A stretch of DNA of 32,000 nucleotides from Vibrio alginolyticus NBRC 15630 = ATCC 17749 (GTDB lineage Bacteria > Pseudomonadota > Gammaproteobacteria > Enterobacterales > Vibrionaceae): positions 2,430,001 to 2,462,000 of the forward strand of contig NC_022349.1 in NCBI RefSeq assembly GCF_000354175.2, given 5' to 3'. Below the pieces are notes generated by a model. The model had not been told where the DNA came from. It made no database searches and saw only the letters and a list, made by a program, of their open reading frames with translations. Both the position numbers and the translations under genes were made by a program. This document shows positions 7,099 through 16,958 of this stretch, in pieces; position 1 is the stretch's first letter, and the number at the start of each line of letters is the position of its first letter.

Positions 7099-7184
7099 AA
7101 ATGATTCGCTGAAATCAGCAATGCGATTAGAGCGTAATTAACGCATCGTTACAAACTACCAACACGGGTTGTTTCTGAAATAAA

Positions 7185-7228
7185 TCTGGAAAGGTGCATA
7201 GGAAGAGGCTTTTGAGCCTTTTCCAGAA
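7185..7228 (-). terminator. Candidate ancestral gor terminator, now separated from gor by the island. Its 5' arm contains the left copy of the island direct repeat.
   Basis: Read on the minus strand: tctggaaaagg-ctcaaaagcctcttcctatgca-cctttccaga-tttatttc. The stem is about 10 bp with one bulge and is followed by a T-rich tract. Assignment to gor is inference from a reconstructed empty site. Confidence 0.4.
7219..7228. repeat. Left copy of the 10-bp direct repeat ttttccagaa (candidate att core)
   Basis: An identical 10-mer occurs at 15353-15362 in the same orientation. The two copies bracket the recombinase operon, the cargo and the AT-rich tail. Confidence 0.45.
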
Positions 7229-7442
7229 AAATTGGCTATTGGAACGATTTTTCCAAAAATCCGAACTCAACCTTACCATTATTCCAGAGTAAATCGTCCT
7301 ACTTTCCGCCTTTTGTTTTCAATAGGTACTTTTATAAGGTTGGTGGAACTATGATCAGAATCTAATGTCAGATGAAAATACGAGCAATGTGTAATTTACT
7401 GTGTAATAATTAATTTAAAGAGTCCCAGAAAGGCGTATCAAC

Positions 7443-8228
7443 ATGTCAGATTATAAGAAGTTGAACAATCACCCGTTAGAACTTGTTCTCGTAGAGGTGA
7501 GATACTCACCAATTCTAAATGTGAAGAAATACATCCCAGAACTACACGATCAACTTCGTGGAGATTTTCCGAACTTCAACACTGTAGTTGATAAAGCGGT
7601 GAACTTTAATAATGACCAAGTAGATTTTTCAAACATAGAAAGATGGCTATTTACATCCAAAGATGGTCAACGAGTTGTTGACATTGATCAGAATAGAGTC
7701 GTTTATGCAACGACTAAATACGATCGGTTTGATGGGTTTCAGGAAGATGTTCAGCAGATAGTTGAGGTCTTGAAAAATATTGTTAACCCGTCGATTTACA
7801 CTAGGGTGGGTCTACGTTATTGCGATAACATTACATCGTTAGATGGGGGGGATGCTGGATTATCAGAGTTAGTCGTTCCTCAGTTGTTGTTTGATGATAC
7901 ATTTAGCAATATCGGTCAAAAAGGCTTTAAGCGTCAAGAATACTTAATTGCAACAGGGACAACACATCTTGTAATAAGAACCGTTCAGACAGTTACGCCT
8001 AATGTCTTGCCTGAAGATCTCGTTTCAATAGGCTTAAAAGTCAAAGCAGATGAAACCGCTAAACTGAGGCTTCTTTTAGACTTTGACCACTTCTGGCAAG
8101 ATTCAAATAACCCGAAAGACTTTGAAGTTGATAATATTCTAGAAACGTTGTCTGGTTTACATGAGGCTTCGAGAGAAGCATTTTGGAATGCGACGACTCC
8201 GTACGCAAGGAATGAAATATGGTTGTAG
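7443..8228 (+). CDS. Uncharacterised protein resembling the TIGR04255 family (cargo gene 1)
   Basis: 261-aa ORF. The N-terminal PLELVLVEVRYSP and central RVGLRYCDNI resemble, from memory, the conserved N-terminal ...V.fe.rF.P and RiGLRYiN blocks of TIGR04255 proteins. I found no Walker A, HExxH or nuclease motif. Its stop overlaps the next gene's start by 10 nt. Confidence 0.6.
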   Translation: MSDYKKLNNHPLELVLVEVRYSPILNVKKYIPELHDQLRGDFPNFNTVVDKAVNFNNDQVDFSNIERWLFTSKDGQRVVDIDQNRVVYATTKYDRFDGFQEDVQQIVEVLKNIVNPSIYTRVGLRYCDNITSLDGGDAGLSELVVPQLLFDDTFSNIGQKGFKRQEYLIATGTTHLVIRTVQTVTPNVLPEDLVSIGLKVKADETAKLRLLLDFDHFWQDSNNPKDFEVDNILETLSGLHEASREAFWNATTPYARNEIWL

Positions 8229-8812
8229 CAGATCACGCATACGCTGATTATGACGTAAGTAAAATCAAAAATTTAGCGGTTTCTGGTCAGCATGCCGTTC
8301 AATCAGCAGCACATAGTACGTACCAGAGCCCTAACGCTACGGAGATTTTTGATCTTATTAATTATCGTTCAGGGCAGCATAAGTATTGGACCCATACTAA
8401 GACAGATTTCCACGACGTTCTTGTTGAAGTTAGTACGACAGACGTTTTGACAGTGTCGCCTCAACAGAATCTATTAGTCAAACGATTGAACGAGTTAAAA
8501 AGTAGCCTTGGATTAGCAGATGAAGAATTAGCGAGTATATTAAAAACAACTCGTAAAACACTTCATAATTGGCAGCAGGGCAATACCAAACCAAACAAAA
8601 CAAAATTGTTACGGTTGGTGGATCAGCATAATCTTTTGAGCAAGTGGTTAAGCAACGGATATCCAGATATCGCCACATTGGATATTGAAGAAAAGAACCA
8701 AATCTTGCATAAGTTGCAACAAGATGAAGTTGATACTGATGACGTCTTGTACTTCGGTTCTGGTTTAATGTTGACTAGTGACTTTGACGTGATCGACGAT
8801 CCCTTTGCGTAG
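8219..8812 (+). CDS. XRE-type helix-turn-helix protein with long N- and C-terminal extensions (cargo gene 2)
   Basis: 197-aa ORF. Residues ~95-135 (LGLADEELASILKTTRKTLHNWQQGNTKPNKTKLLRL) are a classic XRE/Cro-type HTH. There is no internal Met in the first ~180 residues, so the start at 8219, overlapping gene 1 (atATGGTTGTAG), is likely. The C-terminus is acidic (DFDVIDDPFA). Confidence 0.65.
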   Translation: MVVADHAYADYDVSKIKNLAVSGQHAVQSAAHSTYQSPNATEIFDLINYRSGQHKYWTHTKTDFHDVLVEVSTTDVLTVSPQQNLLVKRLNELKSSLGLADEELASILKTTRKTLHNWQQGNTKPNKTKLLRLVDQHNLLSKWLSNGYPDIATLDIEEKNQILHKLQQDEVDTDDVLYFGSGLMLTSDFDVIDDPFA

Positions 8813-8821
8813 GTAGGTGAT

Positions 8822-9658
8822 ATGAACTTTGGAAGTACTTTAGAGACCAAAGGTTGGTTGCAAGGCTGCATTATTCCAAAGGAGCAAGCTGTTGTTTTAT
8901 TGGGACATGAAAATACTACGTGCATAGATGTCAATAAGGCTGGGCTAGTAGACGATAACTTTGTGCTTGTCGTTGCCTCTCAGTCTTGTGATATAGCGAG
9001 GGATGAGGTTCCTTCGGTACAGTTGCTTGTTGCGAGGGTTATTGAAGTTAGAGACCCTCAAAAAAGTTACAACGCCCATCCTAGAATTCTTGATACTCAC
9101 GTAACTCAAGTTCGTGAAGATGGACTGCAAGAGCTTTCACTCAGAGTTAGCATATTGGAGAAAGTCTTTACTCCAAAAGAAAACCTGATTGATATTGACT
9201 ATCTTGATGGTATCTCTTGGGGTATTCAAGAAGAGAGAAGTTATAGGAACTGGTTGGGAGAACATTATGATAGGCCCGCGTTGCCAACGTCGTTTAATGA
9301 TCTTTTAAAGCGTTCTGAGAGCAAGCTAAAGAAAGCTGCGAAGCAGTCCAATGATCACCTGTATGGGATTTACATTCGCCTCAACCCAAATCGTGAGCTT
9401 TTAGAAGGTGAACGCTATGACGTACAATTATTAGGTGCACTGACTAATGATGGTGATGCTAAAACAGCTCAGGATAGAATAGAGCGTTACAAAGATATCC
9501 TTAAAGGGGCAGGTATTAATGTCACCCATGCTCTCGTTAAAGAAAAAAAACAGATTAGCATGGCTACATTGGAGGGGATGACTAGATTCCATTTGGACTA
9601 TTTGTCTTATCGGAACGATACCGAGGAATTTCCTGCCGAAGTAAGCCCCGGAATCTAG
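8822..9658 (+). CDS. Hypothetical protein with no recognisable domain (cargo gene 3)
   Basis: 278-aa ORF starting 9 nt after the gene 2 stop, with strong RBS taggtgatATG. The N-terminal region has a hydrophobic strand followed by SQSCDIARDE (residues ~48-62). The C-terminal half is charged and helical in character. I could find no known catalytic motif. Confidence 0.6.
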   Translation: MNFGSTLETKGWLQGCIIPKEQAVVLLGHENTTCIDVNKAGLVDDNFVLVVASQSCDIARDEVPSVQLLVARVIEVRDPQKSYNAHPRILDTHVTQVREDGLQELSLRVSILEKVFTPKENLIDIDYLDGISWGIQEERSYRNWLGEHYDRPALPTSFNDLLKRSESKLKKAAKQSNDHLYGIYIRLNPNRELLEGERYDVQLLGALTNDGDAKTAQDRIERYKDILKGAGINVTHALVKEKKQISMATLEGMTRFHLDYLSYRNDTEEFPAEVSPGI

Positions 9659-9733
9659 ATACAAGCACCACGTGCAACCATTTCTCACGCAGGTTGTGGC
9701 CCACACATTGAAGGTGGGCTACATTTGTTAAAG

Positions 9734-10192
9734 TTACTTGATTGGTACTACTTTACTTCGTTTCAGCTTAGCAAGCTCCTCTCGAAGCTCCGCATTTTCA
9801 TATTCAAGATCATCTATACGAGCTAATGCTTGAACCAGCTTATCGTTTAGATGGTGCTGTGCTGCCGCAAACAGAGCTAACTTCTCTCGCTCTGCCTCAT
9901 ACTTGGCCTTGTAGTTATCCTTGATGCGCTTTTGCTCTTTGAGCTTGGTGCGCACAGTCAGGATCTCTGGTTGGACTATTCCACCTTTGCCTGTCGCAAT
10001 TTCACCTTTGGTCTGTTTAACTTTTTCCACGAAATCAGGATAGTAGTAACCGCTGCCATTGCCTAAATTTGCCTCTTCCTCGACAGCCCGTACACTGAGC
10101 TTGCGGTGAGTAGGAATGCGCTTAGGTTTACCCTGTTTAATACGCTCTAGGGCTGCCTCTAGTTTCAGTAGTGTATTTTCGCTCTTACTCAT
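9734..10192 (-). CDS. ginD: Small GinD-like protein (4th gene of the recombinase operon), coiled-coil C-terminus
   Basis: 152-aa ORF whose ATG overlaps the upstream recombinase stop (ATGA). It has a basic N-terminal part and a heptad-like C-terminus (LVQALARIDDLEYENAELREELAKLKR). Its position and size fit GinD of GInts; it is analogous to the small TnpC of Tn554-type elements. Confidence 0.6.
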   Translation of the reverse strand: MSKSENTLLKLEAALERIKQGKPKRIPTHRKLSVRAVEEEANLGNGSGYYYPDFVEKVKQTKGEIATGKGGIVQPEILTVRTKLKEQKRIKDNYKAKYEAEREKLALFAAAQHHLNDKLVQALARIDDLEYENAELREELAKLKRSKVVPIK

Positions 10193-12234
10193 AAGTTGGC
10201 CGCCTTTAAGTCAGGTTCAAAAGGGGTAAAGGGCATATCAAAGTCAGCCATGACTTTTTCTGCAGCTCTTACTTGAGTGACATAGTGGCTATGTTCACTT
10301 ACCGAAAATTCTTCGCCAGATTCCATGTAAGCAACTAGACTGCGGTGCTTTTTCTGCCACCACTTAGCCTGCTGCTCGTCAATGATGCTACTTCCAGAGC
10401 CACAATCAACACAGAACTGAGGAGTGACCACACCGTCCATATCGCAGTCATAACCAGATTTGCAATAACTGTGCATTGAGCCATGTAGTGTCAACTTACC
10501 ATCCTTTACGGCTTTGTAGATAACATCCCATGAGCTATAAATAGTCGGTACATCTCCTCGCATTTTCATGATCGCTTTGCCATGAGTGCCTGATAGCGTT
10601 TCATCTGAGTGCCATTGTTTAAAGATTTTATTTGCGGTGGTTTCTGCATTGATTTCATCGAGTGTCTTTTGCACTTGCTCGTCAACTTTCAGATCCCGTA
10701 GGCTCGCCAGCCTCCCACCATTGGTGTACCACTCGGTCATCGCGAGGTATAAGTGCTTGAACTGTTGTTTGAGCGCTACTAATGTCCCTAGGCGGTTCTT
10801 AATGCAATAAAAGGCTAAAGTGCGCCTAAACTGATGAGTTGTCATGTGCCAAGGACTTCCAACCGTTACGTCTTTTTTTACACGGTTTAATGAGCGAGGG
10901 TTTGACTCAAGGCATTCTGCGAAATCCTTTTCAGTTACAATAAAATTGAATTGATTACAAAAACGTTGTAGTCGGTGATTCCATCCTGTAATCAATGTGG
11001 GGGGCTTGGAGCGGTATGATTTATTTACCCAAATCGAGTCTTTGTATTTTTTATCCGGGTAAGTGATTTCTTTGCGCCATTCTTCAGTTAATGTGGTCAT
11101 TAACTCTATTGCAGTTTTGGAAGATGAAGCTGTGACCCATGTTTCTCGCTTATTGCCTAACTTAAAAGTGTGAGATTGGAGCATATGGAAATCACGTCCT
11201 TCAAAGGTATCCTTGTAATAACTTTTAGGCGTTAATTTATCGAGTTCGGAGTCTCGCATACCGCTAAAACCTCCACAAACGATATAGCAAGCATTAGTTA
11301 TTTGACCCCAGTAGCGTTTAAAGTCCGTTCCATTGTTTAGTCTAATACTTGGTACTTTTGCGGCTAATGGAGCGATGAGGTCTTTAACTTTATGTGATTG
11401 GAACTCTTGAATTGCGGAAGTGTATTTTCGCTCGTCAATGCTACCGTCCTCATTCATGAATGAGTAGCGGTTCCCTTGCTTGATTTTTTCTTCAAGATTG
11501 CGCACTCCTTCATCATAGTTATGCTGTAGAGACTTCTCTGTATTCAAAATTAATTGTCTATATGGGTGGGCACCATTGACCAGTTCTATAGCTTTTCCAT
11601 AAATGGCATCACATATACGTTCAGGTATAACAAGAGTTTGTTGTGCTTCATTGAAACTTATCCGTCTTGCTTCAGTGCTTGATTTTATTGGATTTAGGCC
11701 AAGCTCAAGCTTGTGCCATGACTCATCATTTATGGCGGTATTTATTGCCACAAAAGTAGACTCGATGGTTCCTTGGGCATAGTTACGATTTTGCAAGAAG
11801 TGTTCAAACTTAGTCCACACAACAGGCGAACCAAGATCTTTCAACGAGCTATAGTTACTCTCCATCAAGAAACTATAAACTACCTTTATATTATTTAGTC
11901 GAGTGCGAACGCTTGAGAACTTTACTGATTTTTTCTGTTTAGGACTTTTATTAAATAGCCAACCAAAACTCAGAAGCTTAAGTTCTCGTTGTAACTTAGG
12001 AGCACATTTGAATTCCTCTGTATTTAGATTGTTCTTATCTTTCTTTCGAGAGAAAGGTAAGCAATCCCAATTGTTTTGTCCAAAGGTGGCGGTAACGTTT
12101 CCGTCTTTATCCTTGCAGATGACGACGGCATCTAGCTCTTCATATCTTCTCTCATGGTAGAGCGTAACCACATCTACATCCTTGACCTTATGCTGTTGTG
12201 GAAAGTCAGGTAAATAGAGTTTAGATGTATCCAT
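10189..12234 (-). CDS. ginC: Tyrosine recombinase-like protein, GinC-like (681 aa)
   Basis: Catalytic-domain signatures are present: GMRDSEL (box I Arg), HMTTHQFRRTLAFY (H-x-x-R), KHLYLAMTEWY (His ... Tyr nucleophile). A C-terminal H-x3-H-x2-C-x5-C-x10-C-x2-C cluster follows. The start overlaps the upstream stop (TAATG). Confidence 0.75.
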   Translation of the reverse strand: MDTSKLYLPDFPQQHKVKDVDVVTLYHERRYEELDAVVICKDKDGNVTATFGQNNWDCLPFSRKKDKNNLNTEEFKCAPKLQRELKLLSFGWLFNKSPKQKKSVKFSSVRTRLNNIKVVYSFLMESNYSSLKDLGSPVVWTKFEHFLQNRNYAQGTIESTFVAINTAINDESWHKLELGLNPIKSSTEARRISFNEAQQTLVIPERICDAIYGKAIELVNGAHPYRQLILNTEKSLQHNYDEGVRNLEEKIKQGNRYSFMNEDGSIDERKYTSAIQEFQSHKVKDLIAPLAAKVPSIRLNNGTDFKRYWGQITNACYIVCGGFSGMRDSELDKLTPKSYYKDTFEGRDFHMLQSHTFKLGNKRETWVTASSSKTAIELMTTLTEEWRKEITYPDKKYKDSIWVNKSYRSKPPTLITGWNHRLQRFCNQFNFIVTEKDFAECLESNPRSLNRVKKDVTVGSPWHMTTHQFRRTLAFYCIKNRLGTLVALKQQFKHLYLAMTEWYTNGGRLASLRDLKVDEQVQKTLDEINAETTANKIFKQWHSDETLSGTHGKAIMKMRGDVPTIYSSWDVIYKAVKDGKLTLHGSMHSYCKSGYDCDMDGVVTPQFCVDCGSGSSIIDEQQAKWWQKKHRSLVAYMESGEEFSVSEHSHYVTQVRAAEKVMADFDMPFTPFEPDLKAANL

Positions 12235-13979
12235 TATCTTACCTCGGCTGGTGATTTTGGAATTAAGCTTAAAACTGACTCGCTGTCATCCCAAGCGGGG
12301 TGCAGGCCATCATCATCGAGTTTGGTTTCTGCCTTTCTCAATATTTGTTTATTTATGTTTGGAAGTATTTTTTGATTGATAAACAGTATGATGTTTTCAA
12401 AGTTTTGTTTGTAATGGCTGACATCCAAATGAAGGAATAGTGATTCCTCAACACAGGACTTGAATGAGAGCAGGCACCAGATATCTGAGACTGACTGTAC
12501 AATCACTTGGTCAGGACAGCCAAAGCACCCCAATAGGTCTGCACAGGCTAATCGTTCTCCCTCCTTAGCAAGTCCCTGTGTTTGGGCTTTCTTGGTGTAC
12601 TTTTGGGACTTTTCACCGAATGGGGCAGCGCAGCTACCGCCATTAGAAGTACGGCTTAAATTGGGAAGGTTAATCTTGTTTTCTTCCTCGATAACCAGTA
12701 CCTCAATACTGAGGTTTTTCTGAGCCTGCTTGGTGTTGACCCTGCTCTTGACCTGCTCCTCCCGAATTGACATCGTATCTTGCATCATGCCGTTATTTGC
12801 CAGCTTATTTCCCTCGCTATAGTGACGCTTGCGGGTGTTGGGCGTGTTGTTAAGCATAAGGTTATTAACCATTTCACCTTGATGATATGAGGTTAGTTGA
12901 CAGCCTGTTTCACGAAAGCGGCTTATGCTGGGGCGTAAGCGTCTTCCCATTTGATCTGTGAAGGAAAAATGTTTTTCTACCCACTTTTTCAAAAAAGACT
13001 GAAGTCTTGAAGTCTGTAATTTTTGCACCTTTCGTGAGGCGATGGTTTGAAGAAGAGTCGCATCTTCATTTGTGCTAATTATTCTTGAAGCATTGAGTAG
13101 TTTGTCGAAAAAGGTCATGGCATACTTGGGTATTTCTAACTCGTGCTCACCTATCTCAACTTGAATAGTTTTAAATGCACGACGTTTAAAAGCGGGCATG
13201 GTATACCATGTTTCCCCTGTTGAAATTGATGCGTTATTAGGCTGCTTTAACCTAAATAAATCAGTGGTGTTAGCGTAAGTGTAATAAGCGAGTAGGTAGG
13301 TGGCTGCACACATCATCTTCGTTATGCCACCGCAAAGTTTATACTCTCTACCTTGCCATTCAAAGATCATGGTAGGCGTGCTTTTATGAGCTTGAATATG
13401 CGCTTCAGGATTTTTGATAAACTGTGAATATGTTTGATTGAAAAGACGTCTTAGAAATGGGAGTAGTTGTTTTAAATCGCTTTGAGTGTAGGATTCATAA
13501 GATTCTCTATCGCTATTATCCATGATAACCACGTTATTAAAGTAATAGTGTGGTAGATCAAGATATCGAGAAAATAGGGTGACCATATTAGCTCGTCTAT
13601 TCTTATACGTGCTACTTTTGAGTTCGCCTAGCATTACTCTGGTTTGCAAGTGTACCATATACCCTTCTAATGAGCTTTGGGTAAATGCTGGCTCGCTTTC
13701 TTTATCGCACCACCTTAGGTATTGAGAGGCTTCAACATAAATGCCATAAAGTGAGTCGTGACTAACTCCTTCATCTATTTTTTCACTAAAACTGTCTTTT
13801 AACTGAAAAACGAACGCTTCACGATCTGCAAACTTGAATTGGTTGCTTTGTTGCAACTCTTTGCTTGATGGTAACTCATTGAATAAAAGGCGGTTAAAGT
13901 CTGCTAAAAGATTGTCCCTAACATCAAGCTTGATACAGAGGTCACTCCTCCATCCAGATAAATAGGTTAGCTCAGTCAT
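12234..13979 (-). CDS. ginB: Tyrosine recombinase-like protein, GinB-like (581 aa from preferred start)
   Basis: The RLRPSISRFRETGCQ ... NNTPNTRKRHYSEG region resembles the C-terminal Arg ... Tyr part of integrases. It is followed by a Cys-rich tail (CADLLGCFGCP). The preferred start is ATG at 13979, which overlaps the ginA stop (ATGACTGA). The ORF-track start at 14024 would overlap ginA by 53 nt. Confidence 0.65.
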   Translation of the reverse strand: MTELTYLSGWRSDLCIKLDVRDNLLADFNRLLFNELPSSKELQQSNQFKFADREAFVFQLKDSFSEKIDEGVSHDSLYGIYVEASQYLRWCDKESEPAFTQSSLEGYMVHLQTRVMLGELKSSTYKNRRANMVTLFSRYLDLPHYYFNNVVIMDNSDRESYESYTQSDLKQLLPFLRRLFNQTYSQFIKNPEAHIQAHKSTPTMIFEWQGREYKLCGGITKMMCAATYLLAYYTYANTTDLFRLKQPNNASISTGETWYTMPAFKRRAFKTIQVEIGEHELEIPKYAMTFFDKLLNASRIISTNEDATLLQTIASRKVQKLQTSRLQSFLKKWVEKHFSFTDQMGRRLRPSISRFRETGCQLTSYHQGEMVNNLMLNNTPNTRKRHYSEGNKLANNGMMQDTMSIREEQVKSRVNTKQAQKNLSIEVLVIEEENKINLPNLSRTSNGGSCAAPFGEKSQKYTKKAQTQGLAKEGERLACADLLGCFGCPDQVIVQSVSDIWCLLSFKSCVEESLFLHLDVSHYKQNFENIILFINQKILPNINKQILRKAETKLDDDGLHPAWDDSESVLSLIPKSPAEVR

Positions 13980-15297
13980 CCTGACCTCGTAGCACATCGT
14001 GCATAATGGAATCGAGAATGCCAAACTTTACTTTGAACGCCTCTTTGCGTTTTAGAAAGCGTAAATACTTCCAAGTCGTACTTTCATCTTTATGCCCCAT
14101 CCAGTCCATCAGAAGCTCCATACAGTCGACAAGGGGCAATCCAGCCTCTAGCAAGTCACTGAGGCGATAGGTGCCATAGGTGGCACGTAAATCATGGAAG
14201 CGATGGGTAAATGATGGCTCTGCCTGTTTTATTTCTGTCCTGAACTCAATCCACCTAGCTTCAATGGATTTCCCCGTAGCAGGGTTGCCTTGCTGGCTAA
14301 CAAAAAGTGGTTCATGACGGTCACAGCGCTCCAGTATTTCAATGGTCTTCTGGGTGAAGGGGGGAGCATCGCTGTCTAATTGTTCTATTTTCTCGTTGAG
14401 CCTAGTAACACGCCTCAGACGGCGTTCTGAAATTCGATACTCATTCAATGATTGGAACAAGTCCGATGAAATCTCGACAGTCCGAGTCTTTAGGAACTTG
14501 GTTTGTACGCCTGTAGAGCGGGGGCATAACAGAATTTCAAAGCGATGTTGGCTCTCAGCAAGTGGAGTTGCAGTATCTAGCGCATCTAGTGTTAGGGTTG
14601 CTACTTCTTCAACCCGCATACCTGTATCAATCGCAAGCAAGGCTTGTAAGCGCAACTCTTCAGACGTTTGTGGAAGGTGCTGCGTTAAAATACCAAGAGC
14701 ATCACGGCTTAGTGGAGATAGTGGCTTGATGTTTTTACTATCGGCATCCCTCGGTACTTTTATGCGTAAATCACTGGTCTCAACAATGAAAGTTGGAGAT
14801 ACGTGGGCAAGCATCCCACGATTCTGAACTGAGACGAACTCCATTTTGAATGGCGCTTCCTTCTCACTCTTTACGCTTAAGTAACCACCATGCATCAACC
14901 ATTTATAGTAGTTGACGATTTGGTTCATACGAACACTGGCTGTGCTATGTGCAAGTTCGCCTTGTTTTATTTTCTTGAGTAGGTAGGAGCGGAACAGGTA
15001 AGTTGGCTTTAGCCGTTTGACTGGTGGGAATTTATCCCAATTCAACCCCTTGTCCTCAAGAAATTGATAGTAGGCACGCAATGCCTGTGCGCAGGGAGAT
15101 AGGTCTTCTGCTTTCTTTACGACCTTGAGATAAAACAGGTAACTGTTGGCTTCGTGATTGAAGATGCCATCTTGCGAAAAGAGTGTTGGTAACGAACCGA
15201 TATTGTCATTGGAAGGTTGGCAATGGAATGTACCATCATCCAGTTTTTGTAGTTCAGTCTCTTTGAAGACATCGCTGGAGTGTACAAGGTATGTCAT
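13972..15297 (-). CDS. ginA: Tyrosine recombinase / phage-integrase family protein, GinA-like (441 aa)
   Basis: Canonical motifs are present: TGMRVEEVATL (box I Arg), HRFHDLRATYGT (H-x-x-R), MGHKDESTTWKYL (His ... Tyr). RBS cAGGAtgatttATG. It is the first gene of a four-gene overlapping operon. Confidence 0.85.
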   Translation of the reverse strand: MTYLVHSSDVFKETELQKLDDGTFHCQPSNDNIGSLPTLFSQDGIFNHEANSYLFYLKVVKKAEDLSPCAQALRAYYQFLEDKGLNWDKFPPVKRLKPTYLFRSYLLKKIKQGELAHSTASVRMNQIVNYYKWLMHGGYLSVKSEKEAPFKMEFVSVQNRGMLAHVSPTFIVETSDLRIKVPRDADSKNIKPLSPLSRDALGILTQHLPQTSEELRLQALLAIDTGMRVEEVATLTLDALDTATPLAESQHRFEILLCPRSTGVQTKFLKTRTVEISSDLFQSLNEYRISERRLRRVTRLNEKIEQLDSDAPPFTQKTIEILERCDRHEPLFVSQQGNPATGKSIEARWIEFRTEIKQAEPSFTHRFHDLRATYGTYRLSDLLEAGLPLVDCMELLMDWMGHKDESTTWKYLRFLKRKEAFKVKFGILDSIMHDVLRGQDD

Positions 15298-15313
15298 AAA
15301 TCATCCTGAAAGT

Positions 15314-15346
15314 ATCACTGTCCATACATACAGCATAGACAGTGAT
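15314..15346. promoter_or_regulatory. Perfect 9-bp inverted repeat 17-49 nt upstream of ginA (candidate operator or recombinase site)
   Basis: ATCACTGTC-catacatacagcata-GACAGTGAT, lying between the ginA start and the right direct repeat. Confidence 0.35.
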
Positions 15347-15352
15347 TAATTA

Positions 15353-15362
15353 TTTTCCAGAA
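15353..15362. repeat. Right copy of the 10-bp direct repeat ttttccagaa (candidate att core)
   Basis: Identical to 7219-7228. It lies 31 nt from the gor stop codon. Confidence 0.45.
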
Positions 15363-15393
15363 TTATTTACGTGTGTAAGATGCTTTTCCTACA

Positions 15394-16752
15394 CTAACCC
15401 CTCATGGTAACGAACTCTTCAGAGCCCGTTGGGTGGATAGCCACAACAGAGTCGAAGTCTGCTTTGGTTGCGCCCATCTTCATTGCTACGCCGAAGCCTT
15501 GGATCATTTCATCTACCGTGAAACCGATGCCGTGTAGGCCAACAACCGTTTCTTCTTCGCCCGCACATACAAGCTTCATCTTACATGGTTGACGGTGCTT
15601 AGTAACAGCGGTGTACATCGCAGTAAAGCCAGATGTGTAGACTTTGATGTTGTCTTTGCCGTACTTCTCTTCTGCTTCTTGCGTTGTTAGACCGATAGTG
15701 CCGATTGGTGGGTGGCTAAATACCACAGTTGGTACCAAATCGTAGTCCATCTTCGCGTTTGGTTTGTTGTTGAAAAGACGCTCAGAAAGTTGACGACCCG
15801 CTTTCACTGCTACTGGTGTTAGTTCGATACCGCCTTCCATGATGTCACCCACACAGTAGATGCCTTTCACGTTAGTTTCTTGGTATTCGTCTACCTTGAT
15901 GTAGCCTTTTTCGTTCGTTGCCACGCCGGTTGACGCTAGGTTGATTGCGTCTGTCGCAGGGTGACGACCGATTGCCCAAATCAGTTGGTCAACGTTTTGG
16001 CTTTCACCGTTTTCTAGGTGCAGAGTTAGGCTGCCATCGGCTTCTTTTACCACTTCTTTTGGTACAGAGTGGGTGTGCAGTTTTGGACCTTCTGCGTCCA
16101 TCACTTCAACCAACGTATCGATGATCATTGGATCGAAGCTACGTAGTGGTGACTCTTTACGTACGAACAGGTGCGTTTCTGTACCTAGCGCGTGCAGTAC
16201 GCCAGCAATTTCAACTGCGATGTAGCCTGCGCCCACAACCGCAACGCGTTTTGGTTGCTCTGCTAGGTCGAAGAAGCCGTTTGAATCGATGCCGTATTCA
16301 GCGCCTGGAATGTTCGGAATAGTAGGACGACCACCAACCGCGATCAGGATGTGATCTGCTGTGTAGTGTTCACCGTTTACTTCGACAGTTTTTTCGTCAA
16401 CAAACTTAGCAAAGCCTTTAATCACGTTTACTTTGTTGTTGCCAAGAACGCGATCGTAAGATTGGTGAATACGACCAATGTACGCCTGACGGCTCTCAAC
16501 TAGTTTGCTCCAGTTGAAACCTTTCACGTCGACATCAAAACCGTAATCTTCTGCGTACAGGTTCATTGCTTCTGCGATTTGCGCGCCATGCCACATCACT
16601 TTTTTCGGTACACAACCTACGTTGACACAGGTACCGCCAAGGTCTTGAGCTTCGATTAGCGCAACTTTCGCGCCGTACATCGCCGCACGGTTTGCAGATG
16701 CGATGCCGCCACTGCCGCCACCGATACAGATATAGTCAAAATGAGTCGCCAT
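15394..16752 (-). CDS. gor: Glutathione-disulfide reductase
   Basis: FAD motif IGGGSGG, redox-active [14 protein letters not shown]-terminal [12 protein letters not shown]. The preferred start is ATG at 16752 (MATHFDY), preceded by GGAGAAAGTA. The ORF-track start is a TTG four codons upstream. Confidence 0.95.
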
Positions 16753-16958
16753 TACTTTCTCCAAGAGCTTATAAATTTTATCTGGTACATAGATAGATTG
16801 GGATGACCTTGTCCGAACTCAATGCCACCGTTATCCCACTATCATAAATCGAATTCGACTAATTCCTAAATGGGAAAAAGCGACAATACTTATGACAAAT
16901 AGCGATGAGAGGCACAAAAAGAAGAATAAGCACGATTGGAGGGAGAAGGTGAGAGCAT

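Follow-up and report, generated by a model that had tools for sequence, protein, structure and literature searches.

We describe a three-gene operon, carried as the only cargo of an integrative element in the chromosome of Vibrio alginolyticus NBRC 15630 (= ATCC 17749), whose products belong to three families of "hypothetical" proteins and whose gene order is conserved across bacterial phyla. The operon, hereafter the trio, occupies positions 7443 to 9658 of the 32,000-nucleotide stretch of DNA analyzed here (NCBI RefSeq assembly GCF_000354175.2, contig NC_022349.1, positions 2,430,001 to 2,462,000), which we call the window and to which coordinates refer unless another locus is named. The trio combines a patchy cross-phylum spread, operon conservation at the nucleotide level, unrelated mobile carriers, frequent defense or toxin-antitoxin (TA) neighbors, and a fastest-evolving middle gene that is antitoxin-like, features that would fit a selfish or defensive cassette. 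We put the chances at about even that it constitutes an undescribed conflict system, be it anti-phage defense, abortive infection, or a tripartite TA-like module.

A translationally coupled operon is the only cargo of a mobile element

The trio is a translationally coupled operon on the forward strand. Gene 1 (7443 to 8228, 261 amino acids [aa]) encodes a member of the TIGR04255 family that we read as a tandem TBP-like pseudo-dimer, gene 2 (8219 to 8812, 197 aa) encodes a protein with an XRE-type helix-turn-helix (HTH), and gene 3 (8822 to 9658, 278 aa) encodes a member of an unnamed family. The start of gene 2 overlaps the stop of gene 1 by 10 nucleotides (ATGGTTGTAG, 8219 to 8228), and the 9-nucleotide spacer that separates the gene 2 stop from the gene 3 start (GTAGGTGAT) contains an AGGTGA Shine-Dalgarno sequence. 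A first-pass annotation of the window, made by a model from the sequence alone, had described this arrangement of three same-strand open reading frames (ORFs), with the overlap, the spacing, and the ribosome-binding site ahead of gene 3, and every element of that description was recovered here. Upstream lies the AT-rich right arm of the element (7171 to 7442, forward strand), which holds sub-terminal motifs, a putative promoter, and a weak ribosome-binding site for gene 1 (AAGG, 7430 to 7433). By eye, a candidate extended −10 element (TGtAATAAT) can be read at 7402 to 7410; a strict promoter scan of the operon upstream region returned no promoter.

To map the ends of the carrier, we aligned the window with another copy of the element, from the Vibrio furnissii plasmid pMT14. 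Homology between the two is confined to 7150 to 15416, delimiting an element of ~8.25 kb (about 7157 to 15409) whose insertion site is the 3' end of a gor-like (glutathione-reductase-like) gene. The GC content of the element is 38 to 46%, versus 46 to 53% in the flanks. Four recombination genes span 9734 to 15297, and the trio, as the sole remaining coding content, is the only cargo. The mapping confirms the earlier proposal that the trio is carried alone and fills the space between an AT-rich island end and a recombinase operon. That operon is indeed present; it had been left unclassified, and by its sequence features we assign it to the SE (strand-biased circularizing integrative element) type, with the gene order intA-tfp-intB-srap (PMC10214605).

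Conservation of the trio across phyla

The order gene 1-gene 2-gene 3 was kept in 40 of 40 gene 3-bearing loci that were checked for all three genes, comprising the 29 loci first fetched, which were checked by tblastn, and 11 gene 3-bearing loci obtained later. Co-occurrence of the three genes in this order in other genomes had been proposed as a check on the first-pass reading, and the trio passes it across a taxonomic span of Gamma- and Betaproteobacteria, Bacteroidota, and Cyanobacteria. A pattern scan with one genome per species yielded 19 loci, and the taxa covered by the time of the tblastn check of 29 were Glaciecola, Alishewanella, Rheinheimera, Idiomarina, Cellvibrionaceae, Endobugula, Neisseria, Pelistega, Alcaligenaceae, and Capnocytophaga. 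Homologs of gene 3 in Psychrobacter, a Legionellales metagenome-assembled genome (MAG), and Alteromonadaceae have gene 1- and gene 2-like neighbors of matching sizes and order. Loci reached through gene 1 homologs (Acinetobacter baumannii, Acinetobacter junii, and MAGs) also carry the trio in order, as do plasmids of Robbsia (Betaproteobacteria) and Gloeocapsa (Cyanobacteria) and, among the later 11 loci, chromosomal copies in Vibrio cholerae and Salinivibrio. Because the syntenic trio is kept in every one of these 40 loci, and because the AlphaFold2 (AF2) models of both the gene 1 and gene 3 products are confident, the three ORFs are not chance ORFs.

The overlap between genes 1 and 2 is itself conserved: it measures 10 nucleotides in 33 of 38 loci, among which the encoded proteins are only about 20 to 38% identical. 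The persistence of a nucleotide-level feature at this degree of protein divergence argues for selected translational coupling of the two genes. The gene 3 family is large, with 2,196 clusters at 50% identity recovered at an E value of ≤1e-3 when 1.84 billion representative proteins were searched with a profile; the best 150 of the 2,196 clusters have lengths of 130 to 302 aa (mostly about 255 to 290), with a single match and no extra domain. Taken across all of these genomes, the gene order of the trio holds from phylum to phylum, and the trio, as its placements indicate, moves between unrelated mobile elements.

Mobile carriers and defense neighbors

The trio is SE cargo on the chromosome in the window and on pMT14. 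In A. baumannii it sits in P4-like integrase/DUF927 islands, in a slot whose next genes vary among type I restriction-modification (R-M), R-M with SIR2, and AAA_15/21 with a methyltransferase, and in Tatlockia it lies in an integrase/AlpA/primase island. One further locus places it in an integrase island with type I R-M, one in an integrated plasmid-like region, and one beside prophage genes, with DGQHR and methyltransferase genes close by; the trio adjoins an nSTAND1 NTPase gene at one locus and a SLATT protein gene at another. Searches of 74 neighbor ORFs from nine species-representative loci with PADLOC and Pfam recovered SoFic (2), type III and type II R-M, DrmD, MzaA, BrxH, AbiU, and HipA (2), along with integrases, IS66, and housekeeping genes. 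To the earlier question whether the three genes fall in defense islands or on other mobile elements, these loci answer with mobile carriage and with defense genes that are often adjacent, and several copies lie amid housekeeping genes.

Gene 1 and gene 3: conserved residues without a known family of enzymes

We compared the three proteins with PADLOC-DB v2.0.0 (2023), Pfam (2025), NCBIfam (2026), and PHROGs. The gene 1 product matches TIGR04255.1 (NCBIfam) over its full length (149.1 bits versus a cutoff of 30, E = 2e-43, residues 6 to 259 on model positions 1 to 251 of 252), as the first-pass annotation had surmised. Its AF2 model (pLDDT 94.8, pTM 0.90) consists of two beta-alpha-beta4-alpha repeats. 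The best PDB matches by Foldseek are the AdoMetDC prozyme (1e-4), yeast TBP (8e-4), and Med18/20, all with low TM-scores, and the viral matches are giant-virus VETF-L and viral TBP; it is on these models that the reading of gene 1 as a putative tandem TBP-like pseudo-dimer is based. A CYTH/TTM enzyme was considered and dropped, the matches being of low probability only (0.2 to 0.4). Among 68 diverse members, the conserved residues are R20, Y93, R95, R121, G123-L-R125-Y126-x-D128, R179, and L212-D213-x-D215-H216, and because most of them fall on strands or the adjoining loop of the model, they suggest a ligand or substrate site. A profile search against PDB sequences found no match, PADLOC-DB contained no match to gene 1, and the 68 family members gave scattered single weak matches only against PADLOC.

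The TIGR04255 family also occurs in a setting of another kind. In Micromonospora echinospora (locus L039, 6001 to 6855), a distant TIGR04255 protein is encoded on an actinomycete integrative element (RepSA, integrase, NUDIX) that has no gene 2 or gene 3 homolog, and the family would on this evidence serve in at least one other partnership.

The gene 3 product, in which the first-pass annotation could name no domain, has no match in Pfam, NCBIfam, PADLOC, PHROGs, or PDB sequences. Scanning its homologs returned scattered noise in Pfam (n = 46) and zero matches in NCBIfam (n = 66), and 66 family members gave only scattered single weak matches against PADLOC. In the AF2 model (pLDDT 87.5), three parts can be told apart: an N-terminal alpha/beta domain, with Cys56 (motif VASQSCD) opening a helix directly after a strand; a middle hairpin of helices that bears W144 and RPALPTxF; and, at the C terminus, a ferredoxin-like domain, the sole part with PDB fold matches (Foldseek; MamM/ZnT C-terminal domains, weak, E ≥ 0.03). 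Six residues are invariant among 66 diverse members, namely, W12, Q14, C56, W144, P155, and F158. Residue 67 (about 9020 to 9022), a near-invariant Glu family-wide, is Gln in the window protein, as it is in relatives from Vibrio, Alteromonadaceae, and Aliivibrio, a clade-specific change at a conserved acidic position.

We judged several motif ideas for gene 3 by eye on alignments. A papain/NlpC or caspase-like "QxCxG" protein was dropped for want of a conserved His; a PD-(D/E)xK nuclease was dropped, there being no (D/E)xK and E67 being Gln in the Vibrio clade; and an R-S-E ADP-ribosyltransferase, a RES domain, and an E2-like HPN were dropped on unfit order or residues. A peroxiredoxin-like role built on SxxC plus an Arg is pure speculation. 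The earlier statement that the trio contains no known catalytic motif held up.

Conserved polar residues in two acidic, soluble-looking proteins raise the prospect of ordinary biochemistry. The trio might be a non-conflict accessory module, an HTH regulator together with two enzymes or binding proteins for a small molecule or stress signal (e.g., thiol/redox via Cys56 of gene 3), that hitchhikes on mobile elements. The Arg, Asp, His, and Tyr residues of gene 1, mostly on strands, and the helix-N-terminal Cys of gene 3 could be enzyme or ligand sites; some copies lie amid metabolic genes; and SEs carry non-defense cargo too, among it a beta-lactamase gene (PMC10214605) and, in one SE, PEP-hydrolase-family and Tm-1-like ATP-binding genes with a TetR regulator. 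We find this account decidedly unlikely, however, as neither protein has any similarity to an enzyme family, the adjacent pathway genes differ at every locus, and a patchy cross-phylum spread with nucleotide-level operon conservation is typical of selfish or defense cassettes.

Gene 2: an HTH protein resembling antitoxins

The first-pass annotation had recognized a central XRE-type HTH in gene 2, and Pfam HTH_19 matches it at residues 88 to 148 (32.9 bits versus a gathering threshold of 30.2); of the 22 orthologs compared, 16 match HTH_3. The protein begins with a variable segment, followed by the HTH and about 60 aa of helical structure, and closes with a conserved C-terminal tail (DPFA in most lineages); its gene is the fastest diverging of the three. 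Its closest solved relatives are the HTHs of antitoxins: HigA-2 (1e-4), MbcA and Xre/ParS-like proteins (0.01), and HipB (0.02). In Pfam/NCBIfam it scores 15.1 bits versus a cutoff of 30 for MqsA_antitoxin, 15.8 versus 25.8 for Xre-like-HTH, 13 versus 27.8 for Xre-MbcA-ParS_M, 14 versus 90 for NF049845, and 19.4 versus 61.8 for TIGR03830, and in PADLOC-DB v2.0.0 it matches only the HTH portion of RmrA. The resemblance to antitoxins lies, in these comparisons, at the level of the HTH only.

Among its orthologs (for example, L007:8864-9430, L024:9408-9971, L027:9443-9982, and L037:7347-7958), gene 2 comes in two flavors. In most lineages the protein ends in DPFA and has a non-hydrophobic N terminus; a second flavor, from Acinetobacter, Psychrobacter, Neisseria, Alcaligenaceae, and Capnocytophaga, has a hydrophobic end (LI, LF, or LL), and several of its members carry a signal-peptide- or transmembrane-like N-terminal segment, which is odd for an HTH protein.

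An antitoxin-like HTH protein, tightly coupled to its upstream gene and carried on plasmids and integrative elements, would fit a tripartite toxin-antitoxin or addiction module that stabilizes its carrier elements and has no anti-phage activity. Gene 2 would then be the antitoxin, gene 1 or gene 3 the toxin, and the third gene an accessory; with gene 1 as the toxin the order is toxin first, as in higBA and mqsRA, and with gene 3 it is antitoxin first. The likeness of the gene 2 HTH to those of HigA-2, MqsA, and MbcA speaks for such a module, as does the finding, detailed below, that the trio is all that survives in an SE of V. cholerae whose core is deleted. Neither partner of gene 2 is like any known toxin family, however, and both are large and acidic; there are chromosomal copies outside recognizable mobile elements; and the frequent R-M and abortive infection neighbors fit defense islands better than pure addiction. 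We consider a module confined to addiction unlikely. Defense and addiction roles are not mutually exclusive.

The trio as a candidate conflict system

Returning to the reading that we prefer, that of an undescribed conflict system, we infer that gene 2 is a regulator and neutralizer, gene 1 a sensor, and gene 3 an effector, because of the analogy of gene 1 with the TBP-like domains of RnlA and Schlafens, the invariant cysteine of gene 3, and the insertion sequence (IS) knockout of gene 3 in Salinivibrio. TBP-like domains are substrate-binding or sensor modules in RnlA and bacterial Schlafens (PMC8266594, PMC13056530). In this model, gene 2 would act as a DNA-binding autoregulator and neutralizer through its antitoxin-like XRE HTH, its C-terminal DPFA tail docking on a partner, and the conserved 10-nucleotide overlap would ensure that it is made in a fixed ratio with gene 1. 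The gene 1 product would be the sensor or ligand-binding subunit, with a TBP-like saddle bearing conserved Arg, Asp, His, and Tyr residues. The gene 3 product would be the effector, a new fold with an invariant Cys56 at a helix start, and its C-terminal ferredoxin-like domain would probably serve dimerization or regulation. Upon infection, or once control by gene 2 is lost, the effector would either bring about cell arrest or attack the invader. The only clear natural knockout that we saw is of gene 3, which in Salinivibrio is interrupted by an IS (DDE_Tnp_1), with genes 1 and 2 intact; the insertion fits a gene 3 that is dispensable or toxic rather than protective.

Several observations weigh against a conflict system. 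Library, fold, and PADLOC scans of gene 1 and gene 3 turned up no known effector domain, whether toxic, nuclease, NTPase, or other, and both proteins are large and acidic (median isoelectric point of about 5.4), unlike classic small basic toxins; for an acidic gene 1 product, general nucleic acid binding is not an obvious role. Structural similarity is weak, the putative TBP-like assignment of gene 1 being based on TM-scores of only 0.27 to 0.39, and the antitoxin-family scores of gene 2 all lie under curated cutoffs. TIGR04255 proteins are also found without genes 2 and 3. Copies in Psychrobacter and A. junii sit among housekeeping genes with no mobile or defense neighbor, and our count of defense neighbors is a raw one, uncorrected for genomic background. 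A search of IMG/VR viral contigs recovered no relatives, and two "Acinetobacter phage" database matches proved to be a bacterial contig beside prophage genes.

The first-pass annotation had inferred a defense, abortive infection, or TA function from the compact, self-regulated layout of the trio on an integrative element. Synteny, mobile carriage, and defense neighbors partly support that inference; it remains circumstantial, given the lack of a toxic or catalytic domain and the housekeeping settings of some copies. The PADLOC search that it had recommended found no matching known system, a result in favor of an undescribed one. A more specific version, which we advance tentatively and hold to be possible rather than probable, is that the trio is a previously unrecognized multi-phylum immune system in which gene 1 senses a phage nucleic acid or nucleotide, gene 2 keeps the system silent, and a cysteine-dependent gene 3 executes the response, with SEs shuttling this defense cargo between chromosomes and conjugative plasmids.

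The SE-type carrier and its sub-terminal motifs

Both ends of the element were delimited. On the cargo side (attR side, 7151 to 7170), a 6-bp spacer, ACAAAC (7151 to 7156), is followed by the imperfect terminal inverted repeat TACCAACACGGGTT (7157 to 7170). The intA side (attL side, 15298 to 15415) comprises a palindrome (15314 to 15346), sub-terminal motifs (15349 to 15378), the terminal repeat AACCCCTCATGGTA (15396 to 15409), and the spacer ACGAAC (15410 to 15415). The first repeat and the reverse complement of the second are identical at 11 of 14 bases. The intA-side end overlaps the final codons of the flanking gor-like gene, whose stop lies at 15394 to 15396, and the SE end provides the last codons and stop of that gene (15394 to 15416). 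At the left junction, the sequence ACGCATCGTTACAAAC (attR, 7139 to 7156) resembles the native gor 3' end in Salinivibrio, GCGCATGGTAACAAAC, and appears to be a partial duplication derived from attB.

The four core genes are all on the reverse strand. An intA-like tyrosine recombinase gene (13972 to 15297, 441 aa) matches Pfam Phage_integrase (E = 3.3e-11). The tfp-like product (12234 to 14024, 596 aa as listed) has, by eye, no recognizable catalytic R-H-R-Y. The listed tfp ORF begins with TTG and overlaps intA by 53 nucleotides; because the RefSeq homolog on pMT14 starts at the equivalent of about 13979, 8 nucleotides inside intA, the true start is probably near 13979 and the 596-aa length over-extended by about 15 residues. 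The intB-like large tyrosine recombinase (10189 to 12234, 681 aa) shows, again by eye, the R (GMRDSEL), HxxR (HQFRR), and H...Y (KHLYLAMTEWY) motifs. A small coiled-coil gene (9734 to 10192, 152 aa) is called srap-like on its position, its size, weak coiled-coil-type matches only, and the SE gene order (PMC10214605).

Four co-directional genes in the order intA, tfp, intB, srap, imperfect terminal inverted repeats of 14 bp, inside the 13- to 19-bp range used to define SE termini, 6-bp spacers, and defined ends are together the hallmarks by which we place the carrier among SEs. Homologs of Tfp were found by tblastn on 197 plasmids, including those of Vibrio, Shewanella, Leclercia, and Enterobacter, and pMT14, with its copy of the trio, is among these plasmids. 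We rejected a GMT island as the carrier, the core proteins having no NCBIfam GMT match and the core genes being four and not three, and the trio is missing from the text and supplements of the GMT/GAPS paper (Mahata et al., bioRxiv 10.1101/2023.03.28.534373). A GInt is less likely than an SE, given the gene order and the catalytic large recombinase in third place.

Two sub-terminal motifs, ATTATT(N0-2)CCAGA and ATTTAC(N0-1)TGTGTAA, each occur exactly twice in the 32 kb (expected, 0.01 to 0.03), with one copy near each SE end in the same orientation: ATTATTCCAGA at 7278 to 7288 and ATTTACTGTGTAA at 7394 to 7406 on the cargo side and their counterparts at 15349 to 15361 and 15365 to 15378. Ahead of intA the two lie side by side, whereas 105 bp separate them ahead of gene 1. 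We considered them as operators for gene 2 and rejected that idea: because an SE with other cargo and no trio (locus L046, 7640 to 7680) carries the same motifs upstream of intA, they are SE sub-terminal sites, candidates for recombinase binding or for intA control.

The same motifs bear on one more account of the trio, in which gene 2 and its partners would control excision, integration, or copy number of the SE itself. The operon upstream region does overlap sub-terminal motifs that also lie upstream of intA, and the trio is located in the right arm of the element. SEs with other cargo keep the motifs without the trio, however, and the trio in turn occurs with P4-like integrases, on plasmids, by prophage, or with no mobile element, in phyla without reported SEs; because of this distribution, an SE accessory function is largely refuted and strikes us as highly improbable.

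Exchange and decay of SE copies

The second SE copy with the trio, on the conjugative plasmid pMT14 of V. furnissii (locus L030, 7329 to 15596, aligned with 7150 to 15416 of the window), is a mosaic relative to the copy in the window. On the cargo side (7150 to 9900, comprising the right arm, the trio, and the srap end) the two are 99 to 100% identical, versus 77 to 93% in the core genes, with the minimum (about 77 to 80%) over tfp and the 5' part of intB. This pattern suggests either that two diverged SEs recently exchanged the cargo module or that gene conversion took place.

Other copies document the loss of the SE core. In V. cholerae (loci L044/L045, 8314 to 12432, compared with 7139 to 9729 and 15253 to 16764 of the window), the trio occupies the same gor 3' site and both SE ends are kept; the four core genes are cleanly deleted (window 9730 to 15252 is absent), leaving about 10 intA codons. 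This copy would be either a non-autonomous "mini-SE" or a fixed relic, with the trio as its sole content. On a Vibrio sp. gvc plasmid (locus L031, 2707 to 5234 and 6537 to 6581), the trio and its upstream arm are 90% identical, an IS3 element stands in place of the SE core, and a 45-bp intA fragment is left; this is a further decayed SE that retains its cargo. In Salinivibrio proteolyticus (locus L043, 8519 to 12196), the trio, with its interrupted gene 3, adjoins a gor gene that retains its native 3' end (GCGCATGGTAACAAAC) and has no recognizable SE terminal motifs around it, in either a decayed SE or an older SE-free state.

Comparison with known systems and significance

Among characterized systems, the trio recalls toxin-first type II TA modules (V. 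cholerae HigBA-2, MqsRA, and the Xre/MbcA/ParS antitoxins), to which the gene 2 HTH is most similar among solved structures and which are likewise compact, translationally coupled, and found on mobile elements. It differs in having three genes versus two, in the extra N- and C-terminal regions of gene 2, and in partners of 260 to 280 aa that are acidic and are not RelE-, MqsR-, RES-, or ART-type toxins. The second point of comparison is with RnlA/LsoA (TBP1-TBP2-HEPN) and TBP-like-fused Schlafens, in which tandem TBP-like domains occur in an anti-phage or TA setting and which gene 1 is predicted to resemble. The trio lacks a HEPN or Schlafen nuclease, however, and its TBP-like unit is a separate protein; the likeness of gene 1 to RnlA lies at the fold level only, with low TM-scores, and RnlA is not among the top Foldseek matches.

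The carrier shares with SE-6945, SE-6283, and their relatives (Idola et al. 2023, PMC10214605) the intA-tfp-intB-srap order, ~14-bp imperfect terminal inverted repeats, and 6-bp spacers, and, being likened to them by gene order and termini, it likewise resides in a Vibrio host, is low in GC, and measures about 8 kb; SE-6945, which has a single cargo gene, is 7.2 kb long (PMC10214605). It differs in that its cargo is the trio and not an antibiotic-resistance gene. In concept, as a small, recombinase-defined Vibrio island with cargo of "hypothetical" genes, it is like the GMT islands, whose GAPS cargo proved to be anti-phage (Mahata et al., bioRxiv 10.1101/2023.03.28.534373), whereas GMT islands have three core genes to the four of the carrier, which has no NCBIfam GMT match. 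A search of the full-text literature for TIGR04255, its InterPro aliases, and eight protein accessions found nothing. By sequence comparison, the parts of the trio other than the generic HTH are outside characterized families. We rate the trio as a candidate conflict cassette, mobile, HTH-regulated, and made of undescribed parts, with a real prospect of proving a new system of its own.

That a chromosomal SE and a conjugative-plasmid SE have nearly identical cargo and yet diverged cores points to cargo exchanged between elements, which bears on the spread of defense genes in Vibrio, including V. cholerae. If the trio is an immune or abortive-infection system, it would be a widespread one (about 2,200 clusters at 50% identity) that draws on two families of proteins to which no function has been assigned; it would give the orphan family TIGR04255 its first biological role and add a new effector fold with an invariant cysteine; and SEs, so far mainly carriers of antibiotic resistance, would become carriers of defense genes as well. 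Should it prove to be no more than an addiction module, or else an ordinary accessory operon, the trio would still provide a clean, testable assignment for three "hypothetical" families.

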